DNA from: a virus
DNA: 64,000 nt
IMG/VR virus record: IMGVR_UViG_3300045988_182880
Coordinates: 1-64,000 of that record
Strand: one strand, 5' to 3'
Below the pieces are notes generated by a model that worked only from the letters and a program-made list of their open reading frames with translations, had not been told where the DNA came from and ran no database searches. The position numbers and the translations under genes were made by a program. Positions 11,476 through 60,332 of this stretch are shown here, in pieces (position 1 is the first letter of the stretch; each line of letters opens with the position of its first letter).

Positions 11476-13020
11476 TTAGTCGTGGGCTATTGACTCTTCA
11501 GTTTTCTTTTTCAGCCATTGTCTTCTCACAAACGGCGTGACATAAGTTTCATCACTCTTCAGCTCATAGCCATAGCTTTCAGCTATCAGGATGGCACGTT
11601 CGCTTGCTTTCTGTCCGGCAGGCAGGTGGCGAATGAAACCATTGATGTTTTTGGACGAAGCATCATATTTGGATTTGTCGAACACCCGCAGCGGCTCGTC
11701 GTCATCATTGCCTTTCTTGCGATAATCGCGGGGCTTTCCGCCAATCATCAGACAACGAATCCCGAATGGAGCATCCGCATGTGTCACAAACGAAGACCGG
11801 AACGACGCATCAGTGGGCAGGACATCCGGCAAATCACAGGCGAGAGAAGTGTACAGCCAGAGAATCAGATTCGTGACGCTGTCAACCAGCTCTGGAAATT
11901 GAGCTCGGTCAGTCAAAATATAAAACCACTCGGTGCTTGTGTTATAGTATCCGGCCAGGTCACCGAACTTGGTTACGATTTTATACAGACACACAATCTC
12001 GTTGTCGCGGCAAGTCTCTTTCAGCTTAATTTCCTGTATCAGCTGGCAGGCATCAAACTGAAACAATGCACCGTTGGCGGGAAGAGTTCTGCGGCGATGG
12101 TGCAGCGTATCTTTCAGAAACTCTGTCGTATATTTGGGTGAGATGGGCTTTGGCCACCAGGACCACATGTTCGGAGTATTCTCAATCAGCGGCTTGTCCG
12201 GCAGCATGTCCACGGTATACTCGTTCACATAGGTAGCCATCGAAAGAACCGTGTTTGTATACAAATGCGAGAGCAAAGCGAGGTCGTTGATGCTATCGAA
12301 ATCTGCTACATTCTCATAGCCATAACGCTTGTAGTACGAAAAGACCATATCCAGGCGTCTATCTTCAGAAATCTGAAAATCGCATTTATCGTATGGCCGA
12401 TTATTGAAAAGGGCTTCACTATAATAGACTGGAACATCCGCAAGGGGATAGGGGTCCCGAATGATAATAGGCTCATTCTCAGTCGAAATGCCAACAATGT
12501 TGTTCACAATGTCAAATTCCTGAGGCTTGAGGTATTCGCTTCCCTGCATCAGCATATCGATTACCGCGTACAAGACAGAATCATTACGTTCCACATTTTC
12601 GTCAATGGATAATCCTGAATGAACACATTCCTGCGCATAGGCAATAGCCTTGAAATACAGAGCATAGTCCTTATTCTTCTTGATGGGCTTTGTGAGCCCC
12701 TGCAAAAACTGATGATAGCCTTTAATGAACTTGTCGGGGTTTGCCATGGCAAGCTCTACCTGAGAGCTGACGGCCTCAATGATGGGTTTGCACTCCTCAG
12801 CTTCACGGACCAGGTGAAAGAGGAAAGTAGATGCTTTCGCAAAATCCATGTCATGCAATGTCGTCGCAACCTGGCAAGCGCTGGACAGGGTTCTTCTCTG
12901 AAATACCCAGATAGACTCGCCCTTGCTCCGATATTTCTTATCCCATACCGGTGCGTATTTATCGACTAAGGTATTACCGAAATCTTCCTGCACTGCCAAA
13001 ACACCATTTTCGTTCTGCAC
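11476..13020 (-). CDS. Hypothetical 514-aa protein, downstream partner of the ART-HD gene (same operon)
   Basis: A long ORF lies 10 nt downstream of the 13031-14491 gene on the same strand. No recognisable motifs were found. Confidence 0.5.
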   Translation of the reverse strand: MQNENGVLAVQEDFGNTLVDKYAPVWDKKYRSKGESIWVFQRRTLSSACQVATTLHDMDFAKASTFLFHLVREAEECKPIIEAVSSQVELAMANPDKFIKGYHQFLQGLTKPIKKNKDYALYFKAIAYAQECVHSGLSIDENVERNDSVLYAVIDMLMQGSEYLKPQEFDIVNNIVGISTENEPIIIRDPYPLADVPVYYSEALFNNRPYDKCDFQISEDRRLDMVFSYYKRYGYENVADFDSINDLALLSHLYTNTVLSMATYVNEYTVDMLPDKPLIENTPNMWSWWPKPISPKYTTEFLKDTLHHRRRTLPANGALFQFDACQLIQEIKLKETCRDNEIVCLYKIVTKFGDLAGYYNTSTEWFYILTDRAQFPELVDSVTNLILWLYTSLACDLPDVLPTDASFRSSFVTHADAPFGIRCLMIGGKPRDYRKKGNDDDEPLRVFDKSKYDASSKNINGFIRHLPAGQKASERAILIAESYGYELKSDETYVTPFVRRQWLKKKTEESIAHD

Positions 13021-13030
13021 GGTATCCTCC

Positions 13031-14491
13031 TTACAACTTTAACTGCCCCACACAACTCTGCGCAGTGGGCAGTAGTTTGTGGGTTATCTCGTTGCGGAAA
13101 TACTTAGGGTCCACGGCCCGCATCCCGAACCGCACACGGTCTAAAGCATCTGCATCCTTGAGAATCGTATATAGCAGCCACACCCGTTCTTTGTCCCGGA
13201 TATTGGATGCTTTGAGGTCTGCAAGAGCTTTGCGGTCGTCTAAGCAATGATATTCGATGAGGAAAGCAGTTGCCGAATTGCATTCGGGAACAGCATCATA
13301 ATAAATGTCATTGGACTTTGCTCCGTGACTGTCATCGACATCATCATTCGTCCGCCCAATATCATGATAAAGAATCGCATCACATAGCTGGTGGGATTCT
13401 TTTTTTGTTAAGGCAATGCCCTGAACCTGAACCAAAAGCAGCGCATCAAAGAGAACTCGCAGCGTATGCTCGGCGTCGTGCTCCTCATCATTAGCCCGGC
13501 CATAAGCATCATACAGAGTGGAAATGCGGCTCCGGTAGCGCTGGTAGAGAGGAAAGAACGCCTGAATTTCATCTGTCAGAGCGTTAATGCCGTATAGTGT
13601 ATCGACCTTTCTATCTTTTACGGCAGCCGGTGGGACAAGAACCTCTTTTTCTTCATCATTCGGAAAATACTCGATGATGTCACATTTGCTGACATGGGCA
13701 GTGATGATTCTGCTGTTCTCGAGACTCGGGATGCGGCAGGCAAAGAAACAGGCTACCTTGTAGCTTGTGGTCCAGGAGAAAGATTTCTCGTATGGAGTTG
13801 ATTTGCTTCCTTCCCCACGATAGATGGTCACAATATCTGGCAGGCTGGATAGCTTCTTTTCAGTGTTCTGCTTTTGTTTCTGAGACTTTCCAGAAAAGAC
13901 TTTCTGAAGGTTATCCTCTTTGAGAGCCGAGAACCCAAAATCACTGGTACGATAGAAGTCCAAAAAAAGTGCGTATAGATTCTCACCCGGACTGGACAAC
14001 TCAATGTATTTAGAAAGAACCGATACACGCAGGCTGTCTTCCAGGGAAAAGAGGTAGCCGCGAATGAAGGGGACGTTTCCCGATGAGATTTTCTCGGCCA
14101 TATCCAGAATTCTCTGCTGAAACTTTTCGTCCGATTCGCTGTTCACAGCCAGACGCTTGTCCCCGTAAATGTTCAGAGAGAGAACAATGGGAACGGTCGT
14201 GCTATCGAGCTCGCAATAATAGAGAGGAGCAAGCATATTGTGCGCAGCATAGATTCTGTCGACAGGAAGCCTCGGATACTTCTTAGCAAATTCGTTGGCC
14301 GTTAAGCCGACACTGTAGCCTTCTTTGTAGTACCGTTCAATATCCGCGCTCGTCTGCACTGCAGTGAGGGGTAGCATCGTCTCGAGACTTGCTTGGTTGA
14401 CGCTTACAAGAATATCCCCGACCGTCATTGTTTTTCGGACTTCCAACTTTTCACGGGTTGCCCCGTTACTCAGTATGGATTTCTGCTTCAT
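13031..14491 (-). CDS. Predicted R-S-E mono-ADP-ribosyltransferase fused to an HD phosphohydrolase domain (N-terminal 230 aa unknown)
   Basis: ART triad: TIYRGEG (Arg), SFSWTTS (STS-like) and NDEEKEVLVPP (E-x-E with the VL-P signature). HD motifs: EHTLRV, LYHDIGR, DSHGAKS, EYHCLDD and KDADALDR. Confidence 0.55.
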   Translation of the reverse strand: MKQKSILSNGATREKLEVRKTMTVGDILVSVNQASLETMLPLTAVQTSADIERYYKEGYSVGLTANEFAKKYPRLPVDRIYAAHNMLAPLYYCELDSTTVPIVLSLNIYGDKRLAVNSESDEKFQQRILDMAEKISSGNVPFIRGYLFSLEDSLRVSVLSKYIELSSPGENLYALFLDFYRTSDFGFSALKEDNLQKVFSGKSQKQKQNTEKKLSSLPDIVTIYRGEGSKSTPYEKSFSWTTSYKVACFFACRIPSLENSRIITAHVSKCDIIEYFPNDEEKEVLVPPAAVKDRKVDTLYGINALTDEIQAFFPLYQRYRSRISTLYDAYGRANDEEHDAEHTLRVLFDALLLVQVQGIALTKKESHQLCDAILYHDIGRTNDDVDDSHGAKSNDIYYDAVPECNSATAFLIEYHCLDDRKALADLKASNIRDKERVWLLYTILKDADALDRVRFGMRAVDPKYFRNEITHKLLPTAQSCVGQLKL

Positions 14492-14585
14492 AGAGCGAAC
14501 TTACCGCAGGCCGCAGCCCTTGATAGAGGCTCACTCTCCACAGACTTTAAGATTCGGTCGTCCTGACCGTACTGTTCGCCTGTGG

Positions 14586-15695
14586 TTATGAGGTGGCTGG
14601 CATAGCCAGCATGTCCATTCCTTTCTTTAGAATATTTTCTGCTGCATTTTTATCCCTATCGTGTGATGTATTACACTTCGGGCAGACCCAATGCCGCACG
14701 TTGAGGCTTTTAACCTCTTTGTTTTGGTATCCGCAGCAGGAACAGGTCTGGCTGCTTGGATAAAAGGTTGGTATTTTCACAACCACTCTTCCTGCCCAAC
14801 TAGATTTGTAATCAAGCTGTCGGAAGAACTCTCCCCAAGAAGCATCGGAAATGCTTTTAGCAAGGTTATGATTACGAACCATACCCTTTACATTGAGGTC
14901 TTCTACACAGATGATTTGGTTTTCTTTCACCAGTGTAGATGACAATTTGTGTAGGGTATCTTTTCGTTTGTTAGCTACTTTTTCGTGGCAGCGAACTACT
15001 TTGATGCGCTGCTTTTCCCAGTTGGCAGAGCCTTTCTTTTTGCGTGACAGCTTTTTCTGTTCGCGCTTTAGTTTAGCTTCCGCTTTCTGAAGATACTTAT
15101 GGTTTGGATGTTCGTTTCCATTGCTGTCAACAGCAAAAGATTTGATGCCAACATCCAAGCCGATAGCGGCATTCTTAACAGGAAGCGGTGCTACTTCTAC
15201 TTCGCAAAGAATGCTTACATAGTATTTTCCGCTTGCTGAACGACGGATTGTTGCCTTGCAAATACGACCTTCAATGTTGCGGCTTTTGCGATAGCGCACC
15301 TTTCCAAGTGTAGGAAGTTGAATGTACTTATCGTCAACTTTAATGCTTTTTGCTTTAGTAGTTGTATAACTTTCTTCTCCTCTTTTTCGTTTGAATTGAG
15401 GGAATCCTTTACCGTCTTTGAAAAAGCCTTTATAGGCATTATCTAACTGACGACAGCTATATTTGAGTGCTTGGCTATCCGCTTCAGCAAGCCAAGGAAG
15501 ATAGGTCTTCATCTGAGGAAGTAGATTTTGCGTATCAATATAGCTCATGCTTTCGCCGCGCCGCCTATAGGCTTTTATTCGCCTATCTAATATAGAGTTA
15601 TATATAAAGCGGCAGCAGCCGAGCGTTTTATTGATTTTTACTTCCTGCTCTTCTGTAGGCTCTAGCCGAAATTTATAGCCTTTATGTACTTTCAA
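14586..15695 (-). CDS. tnpB: TnpB (IS200/IS605 OrfB) RNA-guided nuclease
   Basis: The N-terminus [17 protein letters not shown] is the classic TnpB start. RuvC-I is [12 protein letters not shown] CxxC...CPKC zinc finger is present, and RuvC-III is [10 protein letters not shown]. Confidence 0.85.
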
Positions 15696-15900
15696 GGTGA
15701 TTCACCTCCTTTATGGATTTTTGTACTTGTGAATTGGTCAAACCCCCGGAAAAAGTTGAATAGCCTGTTTTTCTCCTCCCACAATTCTTTCTAACATAAT
15801 TATATCATATTTTACAGATGGACGGGCCAAAATCGCAACTTTGTTCATGAATACTTAACCTTTATGCACGAGATTTATTGTTGCCCTAATATATAAAACG

Positions 15901-15930
15901 AGAGCCCCGTCATCTTGGATGGGGCTCTTG
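15901..15930. terminator. Hairpin terminator GAGCCCCGTCATCTTGGATGGGGCTCTT
   Basis: Perfect 9-bp stem with flanking T/A runs. Confidence 0.4.
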
Positions 15931-16056
15931 AGTTGTAGCTGGAGGTGTATCTCATTTTGTGTCAGGGGTATTGTATGGTAGTTTTCGAAAATGAGTGCAA
16001 AAAAACAAACACCAGAAGTCAAACTCAAAAATATCTTAGTCTTGGCAAGTTTACCC

Positions 16057-30014: not shown

Positions 30015-32210
30015 ATGATTACAACAAAGAAGATTGACCCACGGCCATATCAGCAGAAAGCTGCTGCGGCGATTCACAGAGAGTGGGATGCCGGAAATAA
30101 GAAAACGCTGGTTGTGATGCCGACCGGAACCGGCAAAACTATTGTGTTTGCAAGCATCGTGAACGACCAGGTGGCAAAGGGCGAACACGTTTTGATTCTT
30201 GCGCACCGGGAAGAGCTTTTACAGCAGGCAAGCGACAAGCTCAAGATGGTGACGGGGCTAGAGACCGCGTTAGAGAAAGCGCAAAGCTCGGCGCTCGATT
30301 CCGATAAGATGGTCGTGGTTGCCAGTGTACAGACTCTCTCTAAGCAGAATCGGTTAATGAAGTATCCGCGTGATTATTTCGGGACTATCATCATTGATGA
30401 AGCGCATCACACGGCAGCCAAAACTTACAAGGGAATTCTCGAGCATTTCATCGATGCCAAAGTGTTGGGCGTGACCGCAACACCCGACCGAAGCGACATG
30501 AAATCCCTATCTGATATCTTTGATAGTCTTGCATTTGAATATAAGCTTCCGGATGCGATTCGGGAAGGGTATCTCTGCAAAATTAACACGAAGACAATTC
30601 CGGTCGAGGTAGACATCAGCAAGGTTCATATCAATGCCGGTGATTTCAGTGCTCAGGACCTCGGCAATGTTCTTGACCTGTATCTGGACACGATTGCGGA
30701 TGCCATTGTGCGAGAATGCCAGAACCGAAAGACTGTCATCTTTACGCCTCTGGTACGAATCAGCAAAAGACTGTGCAATATCCTCAATAAGCGAAACTTC
30801 AAGACCGCAGAAGTCAATGGCGCGTCTGCGGACCGTGAGGACGTTCTGAAAGGGTTTGACAATGGCGAGTACAAGGCGCTGACGAACGCGATGCTCCTGA
30901 CGGAAGGTTGGGATTGCCCGACCGTTGACTGTATCATCTGCTTGCGTCCTACCAAGAGCCGCAGCCTGTATGCGCAGATTGTGGGACGCGGAACACGTCT
31001 GTGTGAAGGGAAAAAGAATCTTCTCGTGCTGGATTTCCTGTGGCTGACAAAGAAACATAGTCTTTGCCATCCTGCTGATATTTTCTGTGAAGACCAGGAA
31101 GTGGCACAAAAGACCACCGATATGCTGGCGGATGCGGCACTCACCGGTTCGAATAGCCAGGAGAATTTCGGGAGTCCTGAATTGGGGCTGATTGAGGCAA
31201 TCGAGGAAGCACAGACTGAGCTGGACGAGGAAAAGCGGAAAGCACTGTGTGAACTCGAAAAGCAGGATACGATTCAGCGCAAGCTCCAGGCACAGCGTCA
31301 AAAGCCGAGAGGATTGGTTGACCCGCTGCAGTATATCTTCAGCATCGAAGCGCCGGAACTCAACGACTATCAGCCGATGTTCGAGAGTGAAAAGCAGGAG
31401 CCGTCCGATGAAATCATCGATAACATCTCGTCTTTCGGCGTGAAAGGCAGTGCCATCAAATCTCAGGGCCTTGCCGAGGCAATTTTCAAACGACTCATTG
31501 CTCGCAGAGCCAGCGGAATGGCTACCCCGAAACAGATTCGGTGTCTTGAAAGTTTCGGGTTCGTCCATGTTGGGCGCTGGACATTGCGCTATGCAAGCAG
31601 CTTTTTGGACATCATCAGTTCTCATGACTGGAAACTTCCGAATGGGTTTGACGCATCCACGCTAGACCCGGAAAAGAATACGGCAGAAGACCTCGCCAAG
31701 CTGTATCCAGACTACAAGGAGGATGAGACGAAGAAAGCACCGCGTGGGGATGCTTTCATCTGCTGCTACTACGATGCAAGCTATAATTTAGCACGCAAGA
31801 AAGTCTGCAACAGTGAAAAAGAAATGCTGAATCTGTATTATTCGCTTTTCAACAATTGCGAAGCAAAGTGCTTCTATTTCACGAAAGAGGCGGATGCCTG
31901 GATGGCAGAAAAACAGAATCTGATTGCCAGAAAGACCGGAACACCGATTCCTGCCGCACAGCCGACTCAGGCAACACCCGCAGTACCGCCTCCCTTTGTC
32001 CCGGCAGCTCCCGCCAAGAGCCACGAATATTATTGCTGCCTTGCCCGATGGGATGGGTCCTACATTGGCTATGAGATTTACAAGAGTGAGCAGGCAGCTC
32101 AGAATGCCCGAAAGCAGATTGCCCGGCGCGGTGAGACGGCAGTGTATGCCACAGTAGAGGAAGCTGAAGCGTGGGTTGACAAGCAGAAGGCCGCAAGAAC
32201 CAGGAGGTAA
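30015..32210 (+). CDS. SF2 DEAD/DEAH-box helicase (type III restriction Res-like) with C-terminal tandem RNase H1-type hybrid-binding-like repeats
   Basis: Helicase motifs are I MPTGTGKT, II IIIDEAHH, III GVTATPDR and VI QIVGRGTR. The C-terminus has two repeats ending FTKEADAWM and VEEAEAWV, resembling the Cauli_VI / RNase H1 N-terminal domain. Confidence 0.7.
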   Translation: MITTKKIDPRPYQQKAAAAIHREWDAGNKKTLVVMPTGTGKTIVFASIVNDQVAKGEHVLILAHREELLQQASDKLKMVTGLETALEKAQSSALDSDKMVVVASVQTLSKQNRLMKYPRDYFGTIIIDEAHHTAAKTYKGILEHFIDAKVLGVTATPDRSDMKSLSDIFDSLAFEYKLPDAIREGYLCKINTKTIPVEVDISKVHINAGDFSAQDLGNVLDLYLDTIADAIVRECQNRKTVIFTPLVRISKRLCNILNKRNFKTAEVNGASADREDVLKGFDNGEYKALTNAMLLTEGWDCPTVDCIICLRPTKSRSLYAQIVGRGTRLCEGKKNLLVLDFLWLTKKHSLCHPADIFCEDQEVAQKTTDMLADAALTGSNSQENFGSPELGLIEAIEEAQTELDEEKRKALCELEKQDTIQRKLQAQRQKPRGLVDPLQYIFSIEAPELNDYQPMFESEKQEPSDEIIDNISSFGVKGSAIKSQGLAEAIFKRLIARRASGMATPKQIRCLESFGFVHVGRWTLRYASSFLDIISSHDWKLPNGFDASTLDPEKNTAEDLAKLYPDYKEDETKKAPRGDAFICCYYDASYNLARKKVCNSEKEMLNLYYSLFNNCEAKCFYFTKEADAWMAEKQNLIARKTGTPIPAAQPTQATPAVPPPFVPAAPAKSHEYYCCLARWDGSYIGYEIYKSEQAAQNARKQIARRGETAVYATVEEAEAWVDKQKAARTRR

Positions 32211-32215
32211 TCATA

Positions 32216-32769
32216 TGCGTACAGACAAAACGGCAAGCCACATTTGCTACGAGCTTGACCACGATGTGCAGGAATATGCGAAACGGCTTTTAGCCAAAAA
32301 AATTCTGCACGCGGCACAGCAGGACAATGCCGTTCCGTTCCCTAATGAAACGGCAAAGAGAATTGCCGAGACAGCGGTGTTTCTGACCGAACGCCTCGCA
32401 CTTTTGTATGAGCTGAATTATGGATTCCGAGGCGTCCAGTTCAGCACTTTCGGAGAACAACCTGCTGTATACACTACCATGGTCCAGCACAATGCCCCGC
32501 TGTATGATGAGCCGATGCTTGGACGGGCCTACAACCTTGCCAACTACCTTACTGCTGATAATGCGGATATCAAAGAATCTGCTTTGATGAAGCACAAAGT
32601 TTTGGCAGCAATTTATAGTGCCGCTGCACACATGAAAGGGCAGACTCCGGAGCGGGGAAAAATCTCGGTTCAGAGCCAGCTGTTTGTGTCTACGGCAGTT
32701 GAGTTGTTTGATGGTCTTTTGAGTGCAGCAGTAGAGAAAAAGAACAGCGGCAATAAAACCGCCGCATGA
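32216..32769 (+). CDS. Hypothetical protein (184 aa) between helicase and NADAR genes
   Basis: AGGAGG RBS. The 5-nt intergenic gap suggests translational coupling. Confidence 0.45.
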
Positions 32770-32790
32770 GATAGAGAATAGGAGATTCGC

Positions 32791-33282
32791 ATGATTCGAT
32801 TCAGAAAAGATACCCCTCGCTATTGGTTTATGAGCAACTATTACCCTTGCGAATTTGTGATGAATGGGATTCGTTACAAGAACGCCGAGGCAGCATTCCA
32901 GAGTCACAAGGTCCCGCTGGAAGAGCGCAGACAGTTTGCGGACATGCCACCGGCTTCTGCCAAGCGTTTTGGCCGCAATGTGGCTATCCCCGCAAACTGG
33001 GACAAAACTCGGGACGATGTAATGCGCCGCGTGGTGATGGCTAAATTCGAACAGAATGAAGACCTCAAGCAGCGTCTCCTCGAAACGGGTACGCAGCCTA
33101 TTGAGGAAGATACCACCAGCTGGCATGACAACTATTGGGGCAACTGCCACTGTCCGAAATGCCGGAACATCCCAGGCCAGAATCGGCTTGGAACTATTCT
33201 GATGGAAACGAGGGATAAATTGAAAAAGCAAGCTGGCAGCCTACACGATACCGGGAATGCGTTCGGAAGGAACGACCTATGA
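32791..33282 (+). CDS. NADAR (YbiA-like, DUF1768) ADP-ribosyl hydrolase family protein
   Basis: It aligns along its full length to E. coli YbiA. The N-terminal WFMSNYYPCEFVMNGIRYKNAEAAFQSHK block matches the NADAR motif and a conserved AKFEQN is present. The C-terminal GQNRLGTILMETRDKL matches YbiA GKNRLGYLLMELREQL. Confidence 0.85.
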   Translation: MIRFRKDTPRYWFMSNYYPCEFVMNGIRYKNAEAAFQSHKVPLEERRQFADMPPASAKRFGRNVAIPANWDKTRDDVMRRVVMAKFEQNEDLKQRLLETGTQPIEEDTTSWHDNYWGNCHCPKCRNIPGQNRLGTILMETRDKLKKQAGSLHDTGNAFGRNDL

Positions 33283-33808
33283 TGTTCCGACTTACTCGGC
33301 ACTGAAAGGTGCAATGGATTCTATCTACAAACATGTCGGTATGGAAGCAATTCCTTCGGCAGTGTACATTCACTCTCCCATTAAAAAGACCCGTATCCTG
33401 CTGCGAAACATTGAGAATATCGGAGGAATACGGTCCCGCGAATGCTTAACGGATGTTTGCTACACGGTCGTTGTACGAATCGTGAGAATGGACAACATGG
33501 CCTTGGAGAGTGACCTCGCAGTGCAGTACAGAAATTTCTTAGAATATGTTTCCGATAGCTGTGGGATGGGATATCCGTATCTTGGCGTGATGGAAACACC
33601 CATGTATTTTCATCCTGTGGCGGAAACGGAAATTCTTCCAACACTGCCCATTACCGCTGACTTGTGCAATATGCCTTTGACACCGGATTATACGAACAAA
33701 TTTGAACCGGATTTGGTTTGTAGGCATCTTCACATTGAGAATGGTATCATCGATTTTACGAAAGGGGAGTATTTTCGCTGCTATGGATATTCTGAATGCG
33801 CTGGTTAA
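33257..33808 (+). CDS. cas5: Cas5 (Cas5d/Cas5c, type I-C family), N-terminally short; overlaps NADAR gene by 26 nt
   Basis: TYDVPTYSALKGAMDSIY matches Cas5d SYSVPTYQALKGIAESIY, and DVCYTVVVRI matches DVHYQVKAHF. An in-frame stop at 33221-33223 fixes the start. Confidence 0.7.
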   Translation: MRSEGTTYDVPTYSALKGAMDSIYKHVGMEAIPSAVYIHSPIKKTRILLRNIENIGGIRSRECLTDVCYTVVVRIVRMDNMALESDLAVQYRNFLEYVSDSCGMGYPYLGVMETPMYFHPVAETEILPTLPITADLCNMPLTPDYTNKFEPDLVCRHLHIENGIIDFTKGEYFRCYGYSECAG

Positions 33809-35729
33809 GCACTATGATGCGATGGCAGCAGCTGGAAATGCAACGCCTTTCGGCTGGACACACAAGTTTGCTCAGTATGCCGTCGAACTAAACGATGACG
33901 GGGAAATCGATAGGATTTTCGCTCTCGGTGATTTATCCGATAAAAAGAACAAAGGCGAGGAATTCGAGATGCCAACACGCAGGCCACGGTCTGGCAAGCT
34001 GCCGATTCCGTATGTGTTCTGTGATGATGCGGAACATCTTCTCGGCAAAGTCGGTGAAGCGAGCAATCTTGTTCGATACACTATGATGCGCGACGCAGTC
34101 TTTATGCTGCGTGACCTGTTGGGACATTCTAAAGCCTTAGATGTCGTCTACAAGTTCTACGAAACGTGGGACCCAGAAAAGGCGCTTGACAATAAATGTG
34201 TCAGCGACGTAATGGAGGCGAAAGGCCAGGAAAAGAAAACCTTTATCCTGTTCTACAATGGCGTTCCAGTTTTTGATGATGAGACATTTCGCAAAAGCTA
34301 TGCGGCGATTGTCAATAAATATGGGGAAATGCCGATTGATACACTCAAGGGCGGTGAAATTGCTCTGTTGCCGGAACCTATCAGGATTCGAAGCATGATA
34401 AGCGGCAATATCGGGTTTAAGGCTCGCTTGTTTCGAGCCATCACGGCATGGGGAAACAAAAAGAATGGCCCGGTCACAAACACTCTTTTGTCCAACAACA
34501 AAGCAAACACCGAGTATTTCGGACGTCAGCAGGGCAACGCCATCCCCATCACAATGCAAGATGAACATAAGATTTACGAAGCGGCTACAGATTTGCTCAG
34601 CTCCAAGCATCGGTTTTCGGTCCCGGTCACTTCACAGTCGCTTTATTCAAAGAACCAAATCATCTGGTCGGATGATATGCCGACAAAGCTAGAAGACGCG
34701 GTCATTGACCTGTGCTGCTGCCGTAGTGATAAAGCCAAAATTATCTCTCAGGCAAATGAATCGGGTTCTGAGACCACTATCAGAATCCTTGAAAAAGCAA
34801 AACTCTATCAGGGACGAATCACGGTTCTTTCGGACACTGAAAAAAACTTAGTCGTCAACGTTTGGAATCTTGATATGAATGATAAGGGATGTTCTGCATC
34901 CAGCTTTACACAGATGACGCTTGGCGAGCTGCTTGGAAACTTTGCCAAGCATTACACTGACATGGAAATTGACCGAAGCCAGACTTGCCGAGATGCGGAT
35001 GGAACCAGCCGAGATTTTGCAAGAGCCATCAACATCTACAACTCACTTTTCGCCAAGAACAGTGATGGAAGCACGAATTCTTTCAACAACGCTCTTTGGA
35101 AACAACTGAGTATCAGCATTTATTCCGGAACAAAGTATCCGGAGCAAGTCCTTTCCCTGGCACTGCTTCGGTCCTGCCGTTTGCTTCAGCAAAATAAGAA
35201 AGGCAAAGAAAATCGCATCACGGCGTCTTTGGCCGGTATCACAAAAGCGTTCTTGATTCGCAATTACGGGGAGAATATGACCATGGGACTCGACCAGAAC
35301 AACACCAGTCCTGCTTATATCACGGGACGAATCTTCGCGCATATGGAAAGTGCGCAGAGAAAGATTGACCCCAACAACCAAACCACTTACGCTAAACGGT
35401 TCTTTGAGCGAGTTATGATGAACCCGGCAAAAACCATGCCGGAGCTTCACAAGAGTTTCCTTCTTTTGAAGAACAAGGCTAAAGCGAATGGCATGAGAGG
35501 TCTTTATAATTCCTGCGACAAGAAAATTATGGCTCTTATCGATATGCTGGATGGCAACTATCCCGACCATCTATCCGAAAAGCAAAAAGGTGAATATCTC
35601 GTCGGATACTATCAGCAGCGAAGCGCAAACATCAAGGATGCCGAGGAGAAGAAAAACCGGAAAGCCGCCAAAATTGAAACTAATAATACGGATACTGCGA
35701 CAACCGTTGCAACACAAAAGGAGAAGTAA
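33783..35729 (+). CDS. cas8c: Cas8c (Csd1) large subunit, type I-C
   Basis: AAAGGGGAG RBS before the ATG at 33783. MDILNALVKHYDAM...PFGW...ELNDDGEI...PIPYVFCDDAEHLLG matches the Cas8c N-terminal consensus ILQALYDYYER...P.G...iD.dG...vP...lwD...YvLG. Confidence 0.8.
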   Translation: MDILNALVKHYDAMAAAGNATPFGWTHKFAQYAVELNDDGEIDRIFALGDLSDKKNKGEEFEMPTRRPRSGKLPIPYVFCDDAEHLLGKVGEASNLVRYTMMRDAVFMLRDLLGHSKALDVVYKFYETWDPEKALDNKCVSDVMEAKGQEKKTFILFYNGVPVFDDETFRKSYAAIVNKYGEMPIDTLKGGEIALLPEPIRIRSMISGNIGFKARLFRAITAWGNKKNGPVTNTLLSNNKANTEYFGRQQGNAIPITMQDEHKIYEAATDLLSSKHRFSVPVTSQSLYSKNQIIWSDDMPTKLEDAVIDLCCCRSDKAKIISQANESGSETTIRILEKAKLYQGRITVLSDTEKNLVVNVWNLDMNDKGCSASSFTQMTLGELLGNFAKHYTDMEIDRSQTCRDADGTSRDFARAINIYNSLFAKNSDGSTNSFNNALWKQLSISIYSGTKYPEQVLSLALLRSCRLLQQNKKGKENRITASLAGITKAFLIRNYGENMTMGLDQNNTSPAYITGRIFAHMESAQRKIDPNNQTTYAKRFFERVMMNPAKTMPELHKSFLLLKNKAKANGMRGLYNSCDKKIMALIDMLDGNYPDHLSEKQKGEYLVGYYQQRSANIKDAEEKKNRKAAKIETNNTDTATTVATQKEK

Positions 35730-35731
35730 CA

Positions 35732-36694
35732 ATGTCTGAACTCGTTAAGAATCCTATCACCATTGTTCTAGCGTTTGATGCGCAGAACTGTAATCCCAAT
35801 GGGGACCCCGACAACGACAACAACCCGCGTCAGTTTGAGGATGGAATCGGGTACATGTCGTCCGAAAGCATCAAATATAAGATTCGCAGCTACATCCGTG
35901 ACAAGGTCTTGTTTGACGGTCTGGAAAAGAACAGCTATGCACTATATTGCAGCCCCGATACTTTTTCCATTGAGCGCAGCGTTAAAGAGTGCCTGGAGCC
36001 TATCATCGGCAAAAAAACCAAAGGCATCCCCGATGACCAACAGCTGGAGGCTTATAAAGAGCTGTGCCGGTACTACTATGATACTCGCATGTTTGGGCTT
36101 GTGAATACGAGTTATTCCAACTGCAGCCTTCTAAGCCGCATCAAGGGTGCCTGCCAGGTATCTATGCCGATGTCCTATGACCCTATCGAAATCATCCCGA
36201 TGACGATTACTCGCTGCTGCGTTGCTTCCGATGCTGAACGCAAAGGCGAAGATAAAGGCGCCAAGAAGGGCGTCAGTATCGACGAAAGCGACGATGGAGC
36301 CGAAAAGAAGACGAAAGACCGCATGATAGGCCGTCGAAGCATTATCAGATATGGGCTGTATCACATGAGCATTCAAATCAACAGTGCAATGGCACAGCGT
36401 AACGGTGTTACGATGGATGACGTTAATTTGTTGATTGATGCGCTGCAGCATATGTTCGAGGAAGATATGAGCTCCAGCAGAGCCCTAACGCTGCGTAAGT
36501 TGATTGTCGTTGAGCACACCAAACCGATGGGAAATGCTTATCGGGACACCATTGAGCGGGCACTGGCGGCTCGACTGAAGCAACCTAATGATGCACCTAC
36601 ATCTTATGAGGATTACGAGGTGACTTATCACCGCGAAATGCTGCCTGATGAGGTCAAGGTGACTGAGTATAATTATAACAGTCAAAGCGTTTGA
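35732..36694 (+). CDS. cas7: Cas7 (Csd2) backbone subunit, type I-C
   Basis: IVLAFDAQNCNPNGDPDNDNNPRQFEDGIGYMSSESIKYKIRSYI carries the hallmark NPNGDPD...PR...G...S...KRKIR motif of Csd2/DevR. Confidence 0.85.
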   Translation: MSELVKNPITIVLAFDAQNCNPNGDPDNDNNPRQFEDGIGYMSSESIKYKIRSYIRDKVLFDGLEKNSYALYCSPDTFSIERSVKECLEPIIGKKTKGIPDDQQLEAYKELCRYYYDTRMFGLVNTSYSNCSLLSRIKGACQVSMPMSYDPIEIIPMTITRCCVASDAERKGEDKGAKKGVSIDESDDGAEKKTKDRMIGRRSIIRYGLYHMSIQINSAMAQRNGVTMDDVNLLIDALQHMFEEDMSSSRALTLRKLIVVEHTKPMGNAYRDTIERALAARLKQPNDAPTSYEDYEVTYHREMLPDEVKVTEYNYNSQSV

Positions 36695-36990
36695 CAAAAA
36701 CTAATAATTGCTGGTCAACACAACTGTATAAGATTGAAAACACAATAGTCTGCCTCTTGTTGATACGTTGCAAGCGAGAACCTGCGGGACTACAAAAGTG
36801 ATGCACTATGCTACATATGATTGAAACGATATTTTGCTATGGTGCGAAAATGCAGCGGCTGCAGGTAACACAACTGCCGTAAGAAAGGCTACAAAGCGGC
36901 CCATGAGGTCGCGTAAGATTATGCGCCCATCTGCAAACGCGGGTGAACGTTCTTTTTTGCCAAACCCAAAAATAAAACGTGATAAAAACC

Positions 36991-37018
36991 TTGCACATCT
37001 GTGCGAATCAGATATAAT
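36991..37018 (+). promoter_or_regulatory. Promoter with conserved box (f): TTGCAC-16-TATAAT, spacer atCTGTGCGAATcaga
   Basis: Motif family. It precedes the UvrD-like helicase. Confidence 0.5.
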
Positions 37019-37104: not shown

Positions 37105-39825
37105 ATGACACTGAACGACTTGTCAAGCGAACAGCAGGAATTCGTACATTTGGCATTGTCGGGCAAAAACGTATTGTGTGACGCCTGCATCGGCAGCGGA
37201 AAAACATCGACTATCAACGTACTCTGCGATGCATATCCACCAGAACGGCGTATTTTGTACTTGACCTACAACCGATTACTCAAACTTGATGCCAAAGACA
37301 AAATCAAGAATGGCAATGTCCTGGTTCAGAACTATCATGGATTTGCAAGCCTGCTGCTGAACAAAAAGGGAATCCGGAATTGCGGACAGGGCGAACAGCT
37401 TGCTATGGTGCTGGAAAAGAAGGTTCCGATTCCGCCGATTGATACCCTTATCATCGACGAATACCAGGATATCAATGACGAGATTGCGGAACTGCTCAAA
37501 TATATTCGTTCTCAGAATCCGGGCCTTCAAATCGTCGCAGTGGGCGATATGAAGCAGAAAATCTACGATGATACAGCGCTGGATGTCTGGGAGTTCATGC
37601 AGGATTTTCTCGGCCGCCATGAACAGGTGGTTTTCACGAAATGCTTCCGTATTTCTCATGACTTGGCAGAACGACTCGGCAATATCTGGGGCAAGACCAT
37701 CAACGGCGTAAATGGTTCCTGCATCGTGGAACAGATGTCGGTCGATGAGGTAACAGAGTTCCTGGATAAACAGAACCCGAAAGATGTTTTGTGTCTGGGC
37801 GCTCGAATCGGAGCCATGACAAAGGTGCTCAATGACCTGGAAAATCGGCCCGGAAACCTCTATGACAAGCATCACGTCTATGCAAGTATCGCGGACAATG
37901 ACGGGGATAAGGCGGTAGCACCTTCCTCAGATGTTGGTATCTTCACAACATTTGACGGCAGTAAAGGTATGGAGCGACCTATCTGTGTCGTGTTCGATTT
38001 CACTGAGGAATACTGGTCGTCCCGCACAAGCAAGCCAATGTCACGATATGAGATTCTTCGGAATCTGTTTTGTGTCGCAGCAAGCCGAGGAAAGCAGCGG
38101 ATTATCTTCGTGAACTATGACCATCCGTTGAGCGATAAATCCCTGATGACTCCGACTGGAATGAATTGCGTGTTCCGGCATCCGTTTTCGTTCTCCGAGA
38201 TGTTCGACCACAAATTCATCGAAGATGTGGATGCTTGCTATAAGCTGCTGGAAGTCACACCGATTGAGCACAACGACAATACGACCATCGATGTGCAGGC
38301 AGCGGATGCCATGATTGATTTATCCCCCTGTATCAGCATCTATATGCAAGCAGGGTTCTTCAACTACTACGACATTGATGACGCACTTGCATATTATATG
38401 GACCTGCATGATGATATGCAGTATTTGAAAATCAAGAAAGGCGCAACGGTCGAGGATAAGGTTCTGCTGCTCACGGCGCTTGAAACGAATCAGTGCCGGT
38501 ATGTAAAACAGGTCAAGCCTCCTTTTGTGAACGCAAAAGCCAAAATGTCGCTGAGTATGCGGCTTGGCACCGTGTTCACTCCTGATGAGTATGTTCAGGC
38601 ACGCGGAGATATCGACATCCATACTAATGACCATAAAGTGATTTATACTTCGGGCCTTGCGGATGTCGTAAAGAACAACACCGTCTACTGCATCAAGTTC
38701 ATCAGCAGTCTGGCACACAAGCATTTTCTGCAGTGTGCGTGTTCTATGATTGCGCTGGGTCTTCCATATGGCGTTGTCTGGAACGTGAAAAGTAACCTGA
38801 TGTACAGCGTAAAAATCAAGGATAAGGACGCTCTGATTGACGCAATCCTCAAGTGCATCACGAAACGAGCTTACAACGGCGCGGATTATTACACCTGCCG
38901 AAAAGGCTTTGTACAGGATACGGCATCGATTATCGACCGCTGGACTGACGACGGATATGCGGAAGAACCCACCGCCATCACTTCCGGCGACGGTATCGCC
39001 ATCATCAAGCAGGGAACTCGCTATTTTGTGATGGACGGGGCACGCCGAAACACTCTGAACGATAATTTTGGGCTTGGTTTTGCCGATGTGAAAGACGCTT
39101 GTCTTGCTTATGCGAAGAGTTGCGAACTTCAAAAGACTGTGGACCATGATTCTCCTTATTCCGAAGTCGAGTTCTGGCTCGACCAGAACAAGGCGTTTGA
39201 GGAATACATGACACAGGTGAGTCACGAAATCACACAGCACAAAGAAGGACCGTATGCAAAGTACAAGTCTTTCGCTACACCCGTTATCCGAAAAATGCTG
39301 GCCGAAAAAGGACTTGCCATCACATTCCCGGAAAAGGTCCTCATCAAGGTTTGGAAGATGCGCCGCGCCGAAGATGCCATGTATCAGAAAATCGAAGAAG
39401 CAAATAAGCAGAACAATTCCAATGTGCCGCTCGATGAGGCGTTCTTTGACTCTGAACTGGTGGATTCCGTTGAGGGAAATACCAAAAGTGCCAAGGCAAA
39501 AGCCAAACCCCAAAAGGAATCCGCATTGCCGTTTTCCAAGTACGGTGCAGATGAAAAGAAGAGTTACCGTGTTGTGAAGAGTCCTGAACTTTCAAAGCCC
39601 AATCAGCCGCGCTATGTTGTGGTCGAGACGGCTACCGATAAGGTCCTGGACAACGCCAACGGATACGGATACCTATCCTATCAGGCTGCCTGGAAAGGGT
39701 ATTCGTACAAGAGCAAGCATCATCTGGATGGGGCAAAGAAGCCTATGAGCAAGAGCGCAAAAGAACGGGCTAAGAAAAAGGCAGCTTTCTTCTCGACCGA
39801 TTCGGAACAGCTCAGTTTCGGCTGA
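37105..39825 (+). CDS. UvrD/Rep-like SF1 helicase with 450-aa C-terminal extension
   Basis: Motifs: I GSGKTST, II IIDEYQD, III VGDMKQKIY and V TFDGSKGMERP. The ASRGKQRII segment resembles motif VI. The extreme C-terminus has a basic tail. Confidence 0.75.
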   Translation: MTLNDLSSEQQEFVHLALSGKNVLCDACIGSGKTSTINVLCDAYPPERRILYLTYNRLLKLDAKDKIKNGNVLVQNYHGFASLLLNKKGIRNCGQGEQLAMVLEKKVPIPPIDTLIIDEYQDINDEIAELLKYIRSQNPGLQIVAVGDMKQKIYDDTALDVWEFMQDFLGRHEQVVFTKCFRISHDLAERLGNIWGKTINGVNGSCIVEQMSVDEVTEFLDKQNPKDVLCLGARIGAMTKVLNDLENRPGNLYDKHHVYASIADNDGDKAVAPSSDVGIFTTFDGSKGMERPICVVFDFTEEYWSSRTSKPMSRYEILRNLFCVAASRGKQRIIFVNYDHPLSDKSLMTPTGMNCVFRHPFSFSEMFDHKFIEDVDACYKLLEVTPIEHNDNTTIDVQAADAMIDLSPCISIYMQAGFFNYYDIDDALAYYMDLHDDMQYLKIKKGATVEDKVLLLTALETNQCRYVKQVKPPFVNAKAKMSLSMRLGTVFTPDEYVQARGDIDIHTNDHKVIYTSGLADVVKNNTVYCIKFISSLAHKHFLQCACSMIALGLPYGVVWNVKSNLMYSVKIKDKDALIDAILKCITKRAYNGADYYTCRKGFVQDTASIIDRWTDDGYAEEPTAITSGDGIAIIKQGTRYFVMDGARRNTLNDNFGLGFADVKDACLAYAKSCELQKTVDHDSPYSEVEFWLDQNKAFEEYMTQVSHEITQHKEGPYAKYKSFATPVIRKMLAEKGLAITFPEKVLIKVWKMRRAEDAMYQKIEEANKQNNSNVPLDEAFFDSELVDSVEGNTKSAKAKAKPQKESALPFSKYGADEKKSYRVVKSPELSKPNQPRYVVVETATDKVLDNANGYGYLSYQAAWKGYSYKSKHHLDGAKKPMSKSAKERAKKKAAFFSTDSEQLSFG

Positions 39826-40134
39826 TTATTACTGCCGATGAGAGGGGGTGTATCAAGCGCAGCTTCAGGACGTTGCGCATTGTTTTCCAACACAAATAAA
39901 ATCACAAATCGGAAAATCCTTCTGAATATCACATAACAAATATCAGACATATGCCCACATAGGCAGAAAGGAATTACAACCCCTGCGCCGGGAAAGCCCA
40001 CTCCGTGAGGGGTGGGATGAAAGGCGCGTTGGAAATTTCAAGAAATTCATAAGGTGTTAACCGATTTTGTAGCAATTTGTGGTATAATATGCTATATGAT
40101 TAGAGATTATAGACGAACTGCAACAACTGTGTCT

Positions 40135-40500
40135 ATGGTGAATTATCATTTTGTGTTTTGCCCGCGCTATCGAAGAAAAATATTCTTAATAGATGGTGTA
40201 GAAGCGCGATTCAAAGAACTTGTACACCAAATTTGCGAGCAAAACGATTTTGATATATTAGCTATGGAATGCTACATTGACCATTGCCACTTGTTTTTGA
40301 ATGTTCCTCCAACAGTAAGTCCCTCTGATGTCATGCGTATCATTAAAACGAATACATCAAGGGTGCTGCTCAAGGAATTTTCTGAAGCAATTAAAACAAA
40401 AACCATTTGGACACGCAGTTATTTTGTCAGTACCGCCGGTGATGTATCTGCTGCTATGATACGCCGCTATATAGAAACCCAAAAGACTCGAGGTGTGTAA
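40135..40500 (+). CDS. tnpA: IS200/IS605 TnpA (Y1 HUH transposase)
   Basis: MVNYHFVFCPRYRRKIF, HUH motif DHCHLFL, and catalytic Tyr region RSYFVSTAG. An extended -10 TGGTATAAT lies upstream. Confidence 0.8.
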   Translation: MVNYHFVFCPRYRRKIFLIDGVEARFKELVHQICEQNDFDILAMECYIDHCHLFLNVPPTVSPSDVMRIIKTNTSRVLLKEFSEAIKTKTIWTRSYFVSTAGDVSAAMIRRYIETQKTRGV

Positions 40501-42043
40501 TTTGCCATACGGTCAAAAATCAAAAATGGATACCTTTATCCTGACGTTGCCGCTTATTACGAATTCGCACGATGAGGCGGAACTGTATTCCAGCTTTGAA
40601 AAATATTGCAAAGCATATAATTGGCTCGTTCAAAAAACCACGGAGATGTGGCATCAGGTGCGCAAAACTCGCAAATATCGCGATTTGGTTTCTGCTATTG
40701 CTGATACGGCTCCAAAAAGCAAAGAACGAAAAGCATTGTATAAGGAACGTACAAAGCTGCTCGAATCGTACGGTTTCACAAGCGTATCGTTCGAGAAGAA
40801 GCTTAAAGCGTATGCGAAATACTACCATCTGCATTCAGCCATCACGCAAAAGATTGCCGCTCGTGTCTGGGATTCGTGGTACAAGTTCTTCTATAAGAAC
40901 GGAAAATCCGTCCATTATAAAAAGCTAGACGATTTCGTTAGTTTTGCGGGCAAAACCAACAATACAGGCATTCAGTTCCTCGACAATAATGGTTTGTATA
41001 TTAAATTCCGTGGACGCTGCATTCCGGTTAAGCTGCGCAAAGGCAATACCGCATGGTATCAGCAGGAAGCGCTCAAACGGAAAGTTAAGTTCTGCACCAT
41101 CAAGCGCGAAATGATTCGGGGACAATGGCGCTACTTTGTACAGCTCGCCTTGGAAGGCAATCCCCCCATCAAATGCGACAGTAACGGCGTTATGAAGCAT
41201 CCTGTTAAGCAAGGCCGCATTGGTATAGATATCGGAACACAAACCATCGCGTTTAGCGGTAATGATGTTTGCGACCTCCGTGTGCTTGCACCGTCTGCTA
41301 TAGCAGAAGTCCGCAATGGTCTCACTAAGGAAATCGCTCGCGTTATGCGGCAAATGGACCGTTCGCGCCGGGCGATGAATCCGCAGTATTATAACGAAAA
41401 CGGAACCATCAAACGGCTAAAGCGCAAGAATGGACATAAGCAAATTCGTCATTGGAACTATAGCAAAAACTATTATCGGCTGCTGCATAAATTGCAGGAT
41501 TTGAACCGTAAGCTTGCTGCCGTACGCAAGACGGAACACTATATTCTTGCCAACGAGTTGCTGACATACGGCAACGAATTCGTGGTTGAAGATATGAACT
41601 ACAAAGCCTTGCAGAAGCGCAGTAAGAAAACGAAAATCAACCCCAAAACTGGTAGAGCGTATACCAAAAAGCGATTCGGTAAATCTATCGGTCGCTGTGC
41701 CCCGGCTTTGTTTATCGCCATTTTAGGACAAAAAGTAAAGTGCAGTGGCGGCAACATTATCAAGGTCAGCACTTTTGAAACGAAAGCCTCGCAGTTTGAC
41801 CACACCGATGACAGCTATACCAAAAAGAAATTGTCCCAGCGTTTTGCTAAACTCTCCAACGGAACCGTTGTCCAGCGGGATATGTATTCCGCATTTCTTT
41901 TAACGCATTTAGATGAAAGCCTTCAAGGCTACGATAAAGAAGCCATCGATAAAGATTTTCAACAGTTTATGAAACTGCACAACGAGGCAAAAGAACGCTT
42001 GCAAAACAGCCACGAGTGGCTGCCTTCTAGCGTAGGATTCTGA
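40493..42043 (+). CDS. tnpB: TnpB-like RNA-guided nuclease (IS605 OrfB), overlapping tnpA end
   Basis: RuvC-I is GIDIGTQTIAF, RuvC-II is VVEDMNYK and RuvC-III is QRDMYSAFLL. Confidence 0.8.
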   Translation: MCNLPYGQKSKMDTFILTLPLITNSHDEAELYSSFEKYCKAYNWLVQKTTEMWHQVRKTRKYRDLVSAIADTAPKSKERKALYKERTKLLESYGFTSVSFEKKLKAYAKYYHLHSAITQKIAARVWDSWYKFFYKNGKSVHYKKLDDFVSFAGKTNNTGIQFLDNNGLYIKFRGRCIPVKLRKGNTAWYQQEALKRKVKFCTIKREMIRGQWRYFVQLALEGNPPIKCDSNGVMKHPVKQGRIGIDIGTQTIAFSGNDVCDLRVLAPSAIAEVRNGLTKEIARVMRQMDRSRRAMNPQYYNENGTIKRLKRKNGHKQIRHWNYSKNYYRLLHKLQDLNRKLAAVRKTEHYILANELLTYGNEFVVEDMNYKALQKRSKKTKINPKTGRAYTKKRFGKSIGRCAPALFIAILGQKVKCSGGNIIKVSTFETKASQFDHTDDSYTKKKLSQRFAKLSNGTVVQRDMYSAFLLTHLDESLQGYDKEAIDKDFQQFMKLHNEAKERLQNSHEWLPSSVGF

Positions 42044-55115: not shown

Positions 55116-55683
55116 CGAGCACTGTGCTTTCGACAGCAAGCCAATCAAGCGTATACAGTGGGTGCGTTTTCTTGGGAAGGACTAACCATAGGGGCAAAAA
55201 GATTCCATTGCCGACCTGTACGCAAAGAGTGGTGCCGTGGTTTCACAGGTGGGTTCGGCTAAAGATTTGCTGACTTTCCTGCAATCTGCCGGAACCACAA
55301 GGCATTTTTGATGCGCTTGCCCAAACCACTAGATATAGTGGTATCTTAATGTTTGTTTACAATTTAGACACTATATATTGTGTCTTTTCATTGACCGGAT
55401 ACCACATATATGGTATAATACAATTGTTCTCAGGAAGAGGAACGGCTCCTGAGACATCAAGGTTTTCCTTTCCCCAATCTTGGTCGCATGGCTTCATTTG
55501 AGCTGACACAGGTGAAGCGTGAAAATCATCCGTTTCATAGTAATATCCTTCCTTTCTTACCTCTTTATTTCCCATTTGGCGCGGGTAACTCCGCGCCAGC
55601 CGTTCAAACAAACAGCCTCCACGCGGCGGACGGTGGACAACAGATGTTTCCGTGTTCCGGGCATCTGGCTAATGTTTGTATTT

Positions 55684-60329: not shown

Positions 60330-60332
60330 ACA

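Follow-up and report, generated by a model that had tools for sequence, protein, structure and literature searches.

The stretch of 64,000 nucleotides (nt) of the IMG/VR virus record IMGVR_UViG_3300045988_182880 that was analyzed here (the window) carries a gene for a NADAR-domain protein followed by a gene for a Cas5 protein, both on the + strand and overlapping. The NADAR gene (32791..33282) encodes 163 amino acids (aa) with an intact domain. Its match to Pfam PF08719 covers residues 4–145 and model positions 2–163 of 163 (E-value 7.8e-27, 95 bits against a cut-off of 35.1), and the protein appears to keep the whole catalytic domain. The cas5 gene (33257..33808), a member of the Cas5d/Cas5c family, encodes 183 aa, begins MRSEGTTYDVPTYSALKG and corresponds to codons 46–228 of an ancestral 228-codon gene according to alignments, a profile match to PDB chains and structural models. 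We estimate at about 85% the probability that the region joining the two genes, 33221–33290, is the scar left when roughly 6 kb was lost between two copies of a 12-bp repeat, a deletion that truncated a phage cas5 gene.

An earlier note on this DNA had placed an in-frame stop codon before the cas5 start, and reading of the sequence confirms it. The cas5 frame is closed by TGA at 33221..33223 (+ strand), which lies in NADAR-derived sequence within the NADAR codons TTG AAA and is identical in two related contigs, L004 and L007 (related contigs are numbered here with L); a further in-frame stop is located at 33200–33202. ATG 33257 is indeed the first start, since no ATG, GTG or TTG occurs in frame at 33224–33256. 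The sole in-frame near-cognate codons between the TGA and ATG 33257 are CTG 33233 and ATA 33248. Other candidate starts were rejected: CTG 33233 would add at most eight residues and still leave out the first strand of the fold (beta1), and ATG 33279 and ATG 33282 have GGAAGGA upstream but belong to the third frame and run into a stop within a few codons.

The interval 33227..33256 (+ strand), between the stop and the ATG, holds the surviving cas5 codons 36–45 (SKLAAYTIPG). It is untranslated from any canonical start and reads, from the stop onward, KSKLAAYTIPGMRSEG, compared with NSKLAAYTIPGMRSEG in full-length orthologues; KSKLAAYTIPG is still encoded there, ahead of ATG 33257 and in the frame of cas5. 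The reported overlap of the two open reading frames (ORFs) amounts to 26 nt as claimed, and the NADAR frame is open to 33282. The cas5 frame is +1 relative to the NADAR frame. The last 14 residues of the NADAR protein, SLHDTGNAFGRNDL (33238–33279), and its stop TGA at 33280–33282, only 23 nt past ATG 33257, are cas5 DNA read one frame off.

In the common form of these genomes, some 6 kb of DNA (a block) separates a free-standing 150-aa NADAR gene from the 228-codon cas5 gene downstream. The native NADAR protein of relatives is 150 aa long and ends in KKQAGK or KKQTSK before the stop. In the parental-type alleles nearest to that of the window (L011, L019, L037 and L038) the 3' end reads ...GAAAAAGCAAGCTGGCAAATAA and the allele ends ...AAAAAGCAAGCTGGCAAATAA, giving 150 aa and the terminus KKQAGK; the intact cas5 gene (L012 and others) reads ...GTGAACAGCAAGCTGGCAGCC. 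The 12-mer AGCAAGCTGGCA is common to both, encoding K-Q-A-G at the NADAR 3' end and codons 36–39 in intact cas5. Aligned with its relatives, the window has NADAR-type sequence through ...GATAAATTGAAAAAGCAAGCTGGCA and cas5-type sequence from AGCAAGCTGGCAGCCTAC..., and the deletion junction falls on the one remaining copy of this perfect direct repeat (33227..33238, no strand), as found by the alignment and by blastn. In the blastn comparison the window equals positions 1–3396 of the IMG/VR contig L012 joined to positions 9442–16043, a loss of approximately 6.05 kb. As a cross-check, tblastn placed NADAR residues 145–163 within cas5 of L012, L013, L015 and L016. Compared with the common form, the window lacks the final codon and the stop of NADAR, the entire 6-kb block and cas5 codons 1–35.

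The two repeat copies are read one base apart, as A-AG-CAA-GCT-GGC-A in NADAR and as AGC-AAG-CTG-GCA in cas5. Because the copies are out of register by this one base, the cas5 frame is closed by a NADAR-derived TGA, the NADAR gene runs on through a 14-codon out-of-frame tail to the TGA at 33280–33282, and the two ORFs overlap. At the level of sequence, the comparison with relatives establishes the deletion as the origin of both the cas5 truncation and the new NADAR tail. Judging from the junction, recombination or replication slippage between the two 12-bp copies would have removed the intervening DNA. ATG 33257 is, by alignment, the conserved internal Met46 and not a start codon evolved as such. 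The suggestion in the earlier note that the overlap could mean translational coupling does not hold for an evolved arrangement: the overlap is a by-product of deletion between repeats lying in different frames, and in the orthologous loci that we compared NADAR stands apart as a 150-aa gene that has a stop of its own and lies some 6 kb upstream of full-length cas5. Passive termination and reinitiation from NADAR to ATG 33257, if occurring, would be accidental rather than designed.

The identical junction, including the run of five A (A5) at 33223–33227, was found in L004 (ERR14021872), L007 (ERR14041724) and the NCBI contig ULRI01018089.1, of which L042 and L043 are two extracts. Six contigs of 10–200 kb are recorded with the exact window alleles, a 163-aa NADAR together with a 183-aa Cas5; among them ULRI01018089.1 alone was read. 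Since the same junction recurs in separate assemblies, errors of sequencing or assembly are ruled out, and so is a single-base indel that went unnoticed. A chimera assembled at a short repeat would account for a join that falls exactly at the repeated 12-mer; against it stand the same join in the window, L004, L007 and ULRI01018089.1, which come from separate runs and sources, and the exact alleles on record for five more contigs, not read here. A 12-bp repeat is also shorter than the k-mers of the usual de Bruijn assemblers. We regard such a chimera as extremely improbable. A junction-specific probe gave no matches in IMG/VR, and megablast of 32700–36700 against GenBank phages gave no match.

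Full-length cas5 is the prevailing form. The protein search yielded close Cas5 relatives of 227–246 aa (P0004–P0009, P0011; protein clusters are numbered here with P) and P0002, a protein of 228 aa with 93% identity whose cluster has 427 members. We also used a 26-nt probe for the intact allele, covering cas5 codons 36–44, against metagenome contigs and IMG/VR; all 21 probe-positive contigs (17/17 from metagenomes, 4/4 from IMG/VR) have the intact 5' part of the 228-aa cas5 gene, and NADAR and cas5 lie about 6 kb apart in 21/21 typical relatives. The full-length orthologues share a conserved extension, MIEQKDSEILELAGFADRNRKAREVYSEPIFVQVNSKLAAYTIPG, directly before MRSEG. Relatives with as little as 51% identity retain this N-terminal extension, in which I9, A13, K21, V25, Y26, I30 and A39 are invariant.

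A family of Cas5 proteins that truly starts at this Met would be an alternative, and gene callers do predict proteins of 183 aa on a number of contigs (cluster P0001, with 39 members). These contigs are heterogeneous: in L002 an intact gene is broken by a scaffold gap, L003, L005 and L006 are independent truncations with differing upstream sequence, and L004 and L007 carry the junction of the window. The mixed origin of the P0001 contigs and the all-intact probe set, alongside the 427 members of the full-length cluster, refute a naturally short lineage, and we give it practically no credence. The claim in the earlier note that Cas5 begins about 22 residues late holds against canonical Cas5d proteins, relative to which some 18–21 residues are missing, and fails against the orthologues of the protein itself (P0002), relative to which 45 are missing. 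Met46 aligns with M19 of P0020, T21 of P0021 and approximately residue 22 of 3KG4, and canonical Cas5d proteins likewise have a Met near this position.

The difference in frames had also raised the possibility of a NADAR–Cas5 fusion, produced by a programmed +1 frameshift or by a true sequence with one A fewer in the A5 run at 33223–33227. The cas5 frame is +1 relative to the NADAR frame, which is open as far as 33282; on AAA-A at 33223–33226, tRNA-Lys could shift its pairing by +1; and the loss of a single A would join the frames in a product spanning ...DKLK-SKLAAYTIPGMR. The GAAAAAG run and the offset are, however, the same in L004 and L007, and L042/L043 have identical 163-aa and 183-aa ORFs, so that the A5 run and the offset agree in all these contigs. 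The offset is fully accounted for by the register of the parental repeats. By reading, we found no recognised signal for a +1 shift (no slow codon, no in-frame stop at a slippery site, no upstream Shine-Dalgarno stimulator of the prfB type). A search of 5.8 billion protein clusters found the NADAR domain on no Cas5 homologue, and NADAR stands alone as a 150-aa protein in more than 20 loci. The fusion would moreover regain only SKLAAYTIPG and not the body of beta1. We consider it scarcely credible.

The window gene is of Cas5d descent, as judged from its orthologues, and its predicted product is incomplete. The 183-aa protein itself matches Pfam Cas_Cas5d (PF09704) over residues 1–24 only, with an E-value of 0.0012 and 19.3 bits, below the 23-bit cut-off. 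The profile of the full-length orthologues matches Cas5d PDB chains with E-values from 2e-18 (3KG4) to 4e-6, with further matches to 8G9T, 3VZI, 8DEX, 7KHA, 3VZH and 4F3M, and places PILLEVNSKLASYTIPG opposite the Cas5d beta1 strand IRLHIWGDYACFTRPE. The AlphaFold model of full-length P0002 has a mean predicted local distance difference test (pLDDT) score of 81.1 and a predicted template modelling (pTM) score of 0.82, and a Foldseek search with it ranked Cas5d structures first (4R0J, 3VZI, 4F3M and 3KG4, template modelling scores 0.66–0.82). The Cas5d descent of the gene follows from these matches of the full-length profile and predicted fold.

Residues 1–45 of the P0002 model comprise a helix (H6–16), a short strand (E22–25) and beta1 (E30–39) at pLDDT 88–95. 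The loss of the first strand of the RAMP fold, which has the topology of an RNA recognition motif (RRM), was correctly predicted in the earlier note: beta1 corresponds to orthologue residues 30–39, and the window ORF starts at residue 46. According to the model, the remaining ORF would lack the N-terminal helix, the short strand and the central RRM strand beta1, and the complete N-terminal RRM/RAMP fold is not encoded in it. A structural model with an intact RRM core from 33257, named in the earlier note as a result that would speak against this, was not obtained; the model of the truncated protein, made from essentially the same alignment, has pLDDT 52.6 and pTM 0.52, with the C-terminal third at about 30. 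Beta1 occupies an inner position in the sheet of a ferredoxin-like RRM, and its loss is therefore expected to destabilise Cas5.

The catalytic residues of Bacillus halodurans Cas5d are presumably Y46, K116 and H117. With the residue identities so assumed, the Lys-His positions are occupied in the window clade by V-Q or Q-Y (TVQY), two alignments differing by one column. Distant phage relatives keep His at this site (EKHY, KEHH, TWHF). In the window the region aligned with Lys-His is 33530–33560 (Cas5 residues ~91–100, AVQYRNFLEY). By this alignment, Cas5 of the window clade may not cleave the precursor of CRISPR RNA (pre-crRNA) even at full length.

Expression signals for the truncated gene are poor. 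The pairing of the 22 nt upstream of start codons with the anti-Shine-Dalgarno sequence was weakest at ATG 33257 (-3.4 kcal/mol) among the starts tested, the others ranging from -6.4 to -11.7, with -6.4 at the intact cas5 start. No promoter-like site was found on the + strand of the window at 32105–33721; therefore cas5 transcription would have to enter from upstream via the NADAR gene. The deletion would have taken away the promoter-like site upstream of cas5 and left almost no Shine-Dalgarno sequence. Reinitiation at 33257 after termination at 33282, 23 nt back, is possible and inefficient. Reinitiation after NADAR would yield little Cas5 at best, and the protein would very likely be misfolded. 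The deletion very probably crippled cas5 and abolished Cas5 function, and the module of Cas5, Cas8c, Cas7 and helicase is probably inactive in the genome of the window.

Some observations weigh against this interpretation. The truncated ORF is otherwise intact through the ancestral stop, as are cas8c, cas7 and the helicase gene, and cas5, compared between the window and relatives, has a ratio of nonsynonymous to synonymous substitution rates (dN/dS) of 0.07. At least two sequence backgrounds carry the deletion allele, and eight contigs with it are on record altogether; the phage therefore tolerates it, and in principle it might still work. The confidence of AlphaFold is no measure of stability, and the deletion size of 6.05 kb is approximate, being measured on L012 as the reference with the true parent of the window outside the sample.

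We rejected the dN/dS value as evidence of selection on truncated cas5, since the divergence lies in a single patch. The 44–49 differences in cas5 cluster in a segment of about 450 nt (33347–33800) which is roughly 10% diverged from every sampled relative, and the flanks (33196–33346 and 33830–34540) hardly differ from relatives. Identity to the patch does not exceed 92% in any sampled relative, whether intact or truncated, and the contig of the closest one (P0003/L041) ends 31 nt upstream of the homology and gives no information on the 5' end. The patch looks like an imported recombinant segment from an unsampled lineage. With the differences confined to one recombinant-like patch, dN/dS reflects the history of the donor and not selection after the deletion. 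Weaker similar mosaic patches are seen in cas8c, at 34547–34900 and 35267–35390.

The truncated Cas5 could nevertheless be made by coupling or reinitiation with NADAR and remain a Cascade subunit that binds the 5' handle, the N-terminal 45 residues being dispensable. The intact ORF, the intact and conserved neighbours (cas8c, cas7 and the helicase gene), the persistence of the allele on several long contigs in two sequence backgrounds and a NADAR stop located 23 nt downstream of ATG 33257 would all fit. Set against this are the loss of beta1 (E30–39) and two other confidently modelled elements together with the drop in model confidence, the conservation of the N-terminal extension to 51% identity with invariant positions, the poorest Shine-Dalgarno match of the operon, the accidental origin of the arrangement from an out-of-frame repeat, and the deletions in L010, L011 and L019, which remove much larger parts of cas5, and at the extreme most of cas8c as well, and show that the phage tolerates outright loss. 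We think a working Cas5 unlikely, at perhaps a slim chance. Slightly less likely again is a specific form of it, in which the 183-aa Cas5 would be produced by read-through and reinitiation from an operon of the helicase, a 184-aa ORF and NADAR, and would form a complex with Cas8c and Cas7 on RNA of the repeat-like unit that follows cas7. If true, it would mean that the N-terminal 45 residues are dispensable and that the Cas3-less phage Cascade was put under the control of a counter-defence operon.

The scar reading can be followed further in the relatives that keep the deleted block (L002, L012). On the opposite strand, the block encodes an ORF of 144/150 aa and a 628-aa helix-turn-helix protein; it also contains ORFs of 106 aa and 135 aa, a 158-aa macrodomain protein and a 335-aa RlaP-like nucleotidyltransferase. 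Pfam gave no match on the 158-aa ORF, and its macrodomain identity comes from a PDB sequence search (5E3B, E-value 6e-13). Toward cas5, L012 has a promoter-like site (8876–8903), one or two CRISPR-repeat-like units within 8876–9084, with the endings AAGATTGAAAT and GTAAGATTATAAAG in the pattern AAGATTGAAAT ... GCAGTCCTTGAGGCTGCGTAAGATTATAAAG, and a strong terminator-like hairpin (9045–9084). Positions 8876–9084 resemble a single-spacer mini-array, which would have been lost from the window along with the 5' end of cas5. A second promoter-like site, TTGCCA-16-TACAAT (L012 9244–9271), lies about 70 nt upstream of the intact cas5 ATG.

A recurring promoter-like motif, TTGCAC/TTGCCA...GTGCGAAT...TA(T/C)AAT, was noticed at 36989–37018 in the window, at 13627–13655 in L008 and at 8876–8903 and 9244–9271 in L012. 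It lies ahead of the helicase gene, cas5 and the mini-array in these phages and may be a type of phage promoter that they share.

The deletion in the window is one of several. At least six further independent deletions (L003, L005, L006, L010, L011 and L019) extend out of the variable island as far as cas5 or cas8c in sister phages, with a junction overlap of 0–24 nt; their right ends on L012 are 9409 (L006), 9415 (L003), 9474 (L005), 9677 (L011), 9862 (L010) and 11561 (L019, in cas8c). Chimeric ORFs also occur, joining a macrodomain to the Cas5 C-terminus (P0014), Cas5 to Cas7 (P0016) and RlaP to Cas5 (P0017). These serial independent deletions and chimeras indicate that the boundary between the island and cas5 is deletion-prone and that the loss of cas5 is tolerated by the phage. 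Repeated deletions from the variable island (NADAR, macrodomain, RlaP) suggest that the phage Cascade module is often dispensable. We speculate that the nested deletions might result from active selection for losing or silencing the Cascade that the phage itself carries. Separately, the 3' end of NADAR in L032 diverges after ...DKLK into unrelated sequence (MLPTSTNT...), which points to a further rearrangement there.

The surrounding genes form a co-directional block on the + strand. Its first member (30015..32210) encodes a 731-aa ResIII/DEAD-type superfamily 2 helicase (Pfam ResIII 1.5e-36, Helicase_C 4e-13), collinear with L012 180–2372. We considered this protein as a diverged Cas3 and rejected it: it has no HD domain, and BLASTP against Cas3 of L008 shows no similarity. 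It is followed by a conserved 184-aa ORF (32215..32769), located between the helicase and NADAR genes, which has no Pfam match and is present in all relatives (dN/dS 0.2–0.36). Downstream of cas5 lies cas8c (Csd1; 33783..35729), encoding 648 aa from ATG 33783 (Pfam Cas_Csd1 3.5e-69; 97.8% aa identity to L012; dN/dS 0.13); it overlaps the 3' end of cas5 by 26 nt and starts at this ATG, both as in all relatives. The next gene, cas7 (Csd2; 35732..36694), encodes 320 aa (Pfam Cas_Cas7 1.4e-53) and is 98.8–99.4% identical to relatives.

The interval 36717..36945 (+ strand) contains CRISPR-repeat-like units and a terminator-like hairpin (36928–36945), recognised by a match to the repeat core of L008 and by sequence reading. 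One unit ends in ...ATAAGATTGAAAA at 36740 and another in ...ATATGATTGAAAC at 36827, with degenerate copies at 36867–36888 and 36897–36924; the L008 repeat core has one match in the window, against 0.2 expected by chance. The units are conserved in L002, L012, L013 and L019, are irregularly spaced (~88 nt) and share a 3' handle motif with true arrays ending ...AAGATTGAAAT in L008 and L017. The interval is possibly a degenerate or minimal array. No regular CRISPR array was found in the window by TRF and a repeat search, only the degenerate, irregularly spaced units at 36717–36924. Further downstream, a 906-aa UvrD/AAA_19-type superfamily 1 helicase is encoded at 37105..39825 on the + strand (Pfam AAA_19 3e-10, UvrD-helicase 1e-7; dN/dS 0.07). 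It is a conserved partner of the Cascade module and occupies the same position in L002, L008, L012–L015 and L019.

A tblastn search of the 64-kb window with Cas3 of L008 found nothing better than an E-value of 3, and the ORF list and operon Pfam results gave no cas1, cas2 or cas4 within 26–46 kb, the ORFs of the window not all having been scanned. Related contigs of 120–370 kb carry mini-arrays; the distant relatives L008 (a 366-kb contig), L017 and L018 keep mini-arrays and an HD-Cas3 upstream of cas5. In L014, some 53 codons from the C-terminal end of cas3 remain (9042–9200), directly upstream of intact cas5 and 62% identical to residues 688–740 of L008 Cas3; this remnant shows an apparent loss of cas3 by deletion in the Cas3-less clade. 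The window has 17 tRNA genes and its relatives are IMG/VR viral contigs of 122–346 kb; it looks like part of a large phage.

Two features elsewhere in the window were noted in passing. Just downstream of the 906-aa helicase, 40054–42043 encodes a putative IS200/IS605 pair recognised from translations, with a 148-aa Y1 transposase-like protein (tnpA) and a 516-aa tnpB-like protein; L003 and L010 have Pfam-supported Y1_Tnp and HTH_OrfB_IS605 genes elsewhere near the cas genes. A match to the Rfam HDV-F-prausnitzii ribozyme (55599–55679, 48.4 bits against a gathering score of 44) lies 5 nt upstream of tRNA-Thr and heads the cluster of 17 tRNA genes (55684–61834), in which the tRNA at 57111–57186 has an unassignable two-base anticodon call.

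The locus is an ordinary deletion allele within an already described phage variant of type I-C, with no new Cas5 architecture and no fusion. The annotation should be corrected: the 183-aa "Cas5" and the 163-aa "NADAR" are both products of the deletion and not a short Cas5 class, a fusion or a designed coupling. For the clade of large gut phages with a Cas3-less type I-C variant, such deletions are natural alleles for testing the role of the module; the interest is modest only.

As a microhomology-mediated deletion (illegitimate recombination or replication slippage), the junction is nothing out of the ordinary: a single perfect 12-bp repeat copy is left and the intervening DNA is lost, as is typical of such events, and several nested deletions in relatives have a 7–24 nt alignment overlap at their junctions. 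The enzymology is not inferable from the sequence. Genes expressed by programmed +1 frameshifting have a stimulated shift site, conserved frames and fused products elsewhere, and none of these was found here.

Cas5d/Cas5c is the pre-crRNA endonuclease of the type I-C Cascade (3KG4, 3VZH, 3VZI, 4F3M; in Cascade 7KHA, 8DEX, 8G9S), to which the full-length orthologues correspond in profile and fold. The window gene likewise lies directly upstream of cas8c and cas7 and keeps the Tyr of the SIYKH/IYWKP motif. The phage clade differs by an additional N-terminal extension of about 25–29 residues (a helix and a short strand) before beta1, and the window copy differs by the absence of residues 1–45, including beta1.

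Al-Shayeb et al. 2020 (PMC7162821) described a type I-C variant of huge phages in which Cas1 and Cas2 are missing, a helicase takes the place of Cas3, and Cas5 resembles Cas5d but has changed residues in the active site. The window shares with it the order cas5–cas8c–cas7 followed by a superfamily 1 helicase gene, the lack of cas3, the large phage genome and, as far as the alignments suggest, altered Cas5d active-site residues; the match is one of gene order, Pfam results and published description. The window differs in being a deletion allele, with the 5' end of cas5 and the upstream repeat unit lost.

NADAR proteins are guanine de-ADP-ribosylases (PMC11543638), and orphan NADAR proteins of phages are antitoxin-like counter-defence enzymes against DarTG1 (PMC11825919). 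By analogy, the window protein may have this activity: it is a stand-alone domain (Pfam E-value 7.8e-27) with a weak match to T4 Gp30.3, and in the relatives NADAR is encoded close to a macrodomain protein. The 14-residue C-terminal tail that the deletion gave to the window copy has no counterpart in the native protein.

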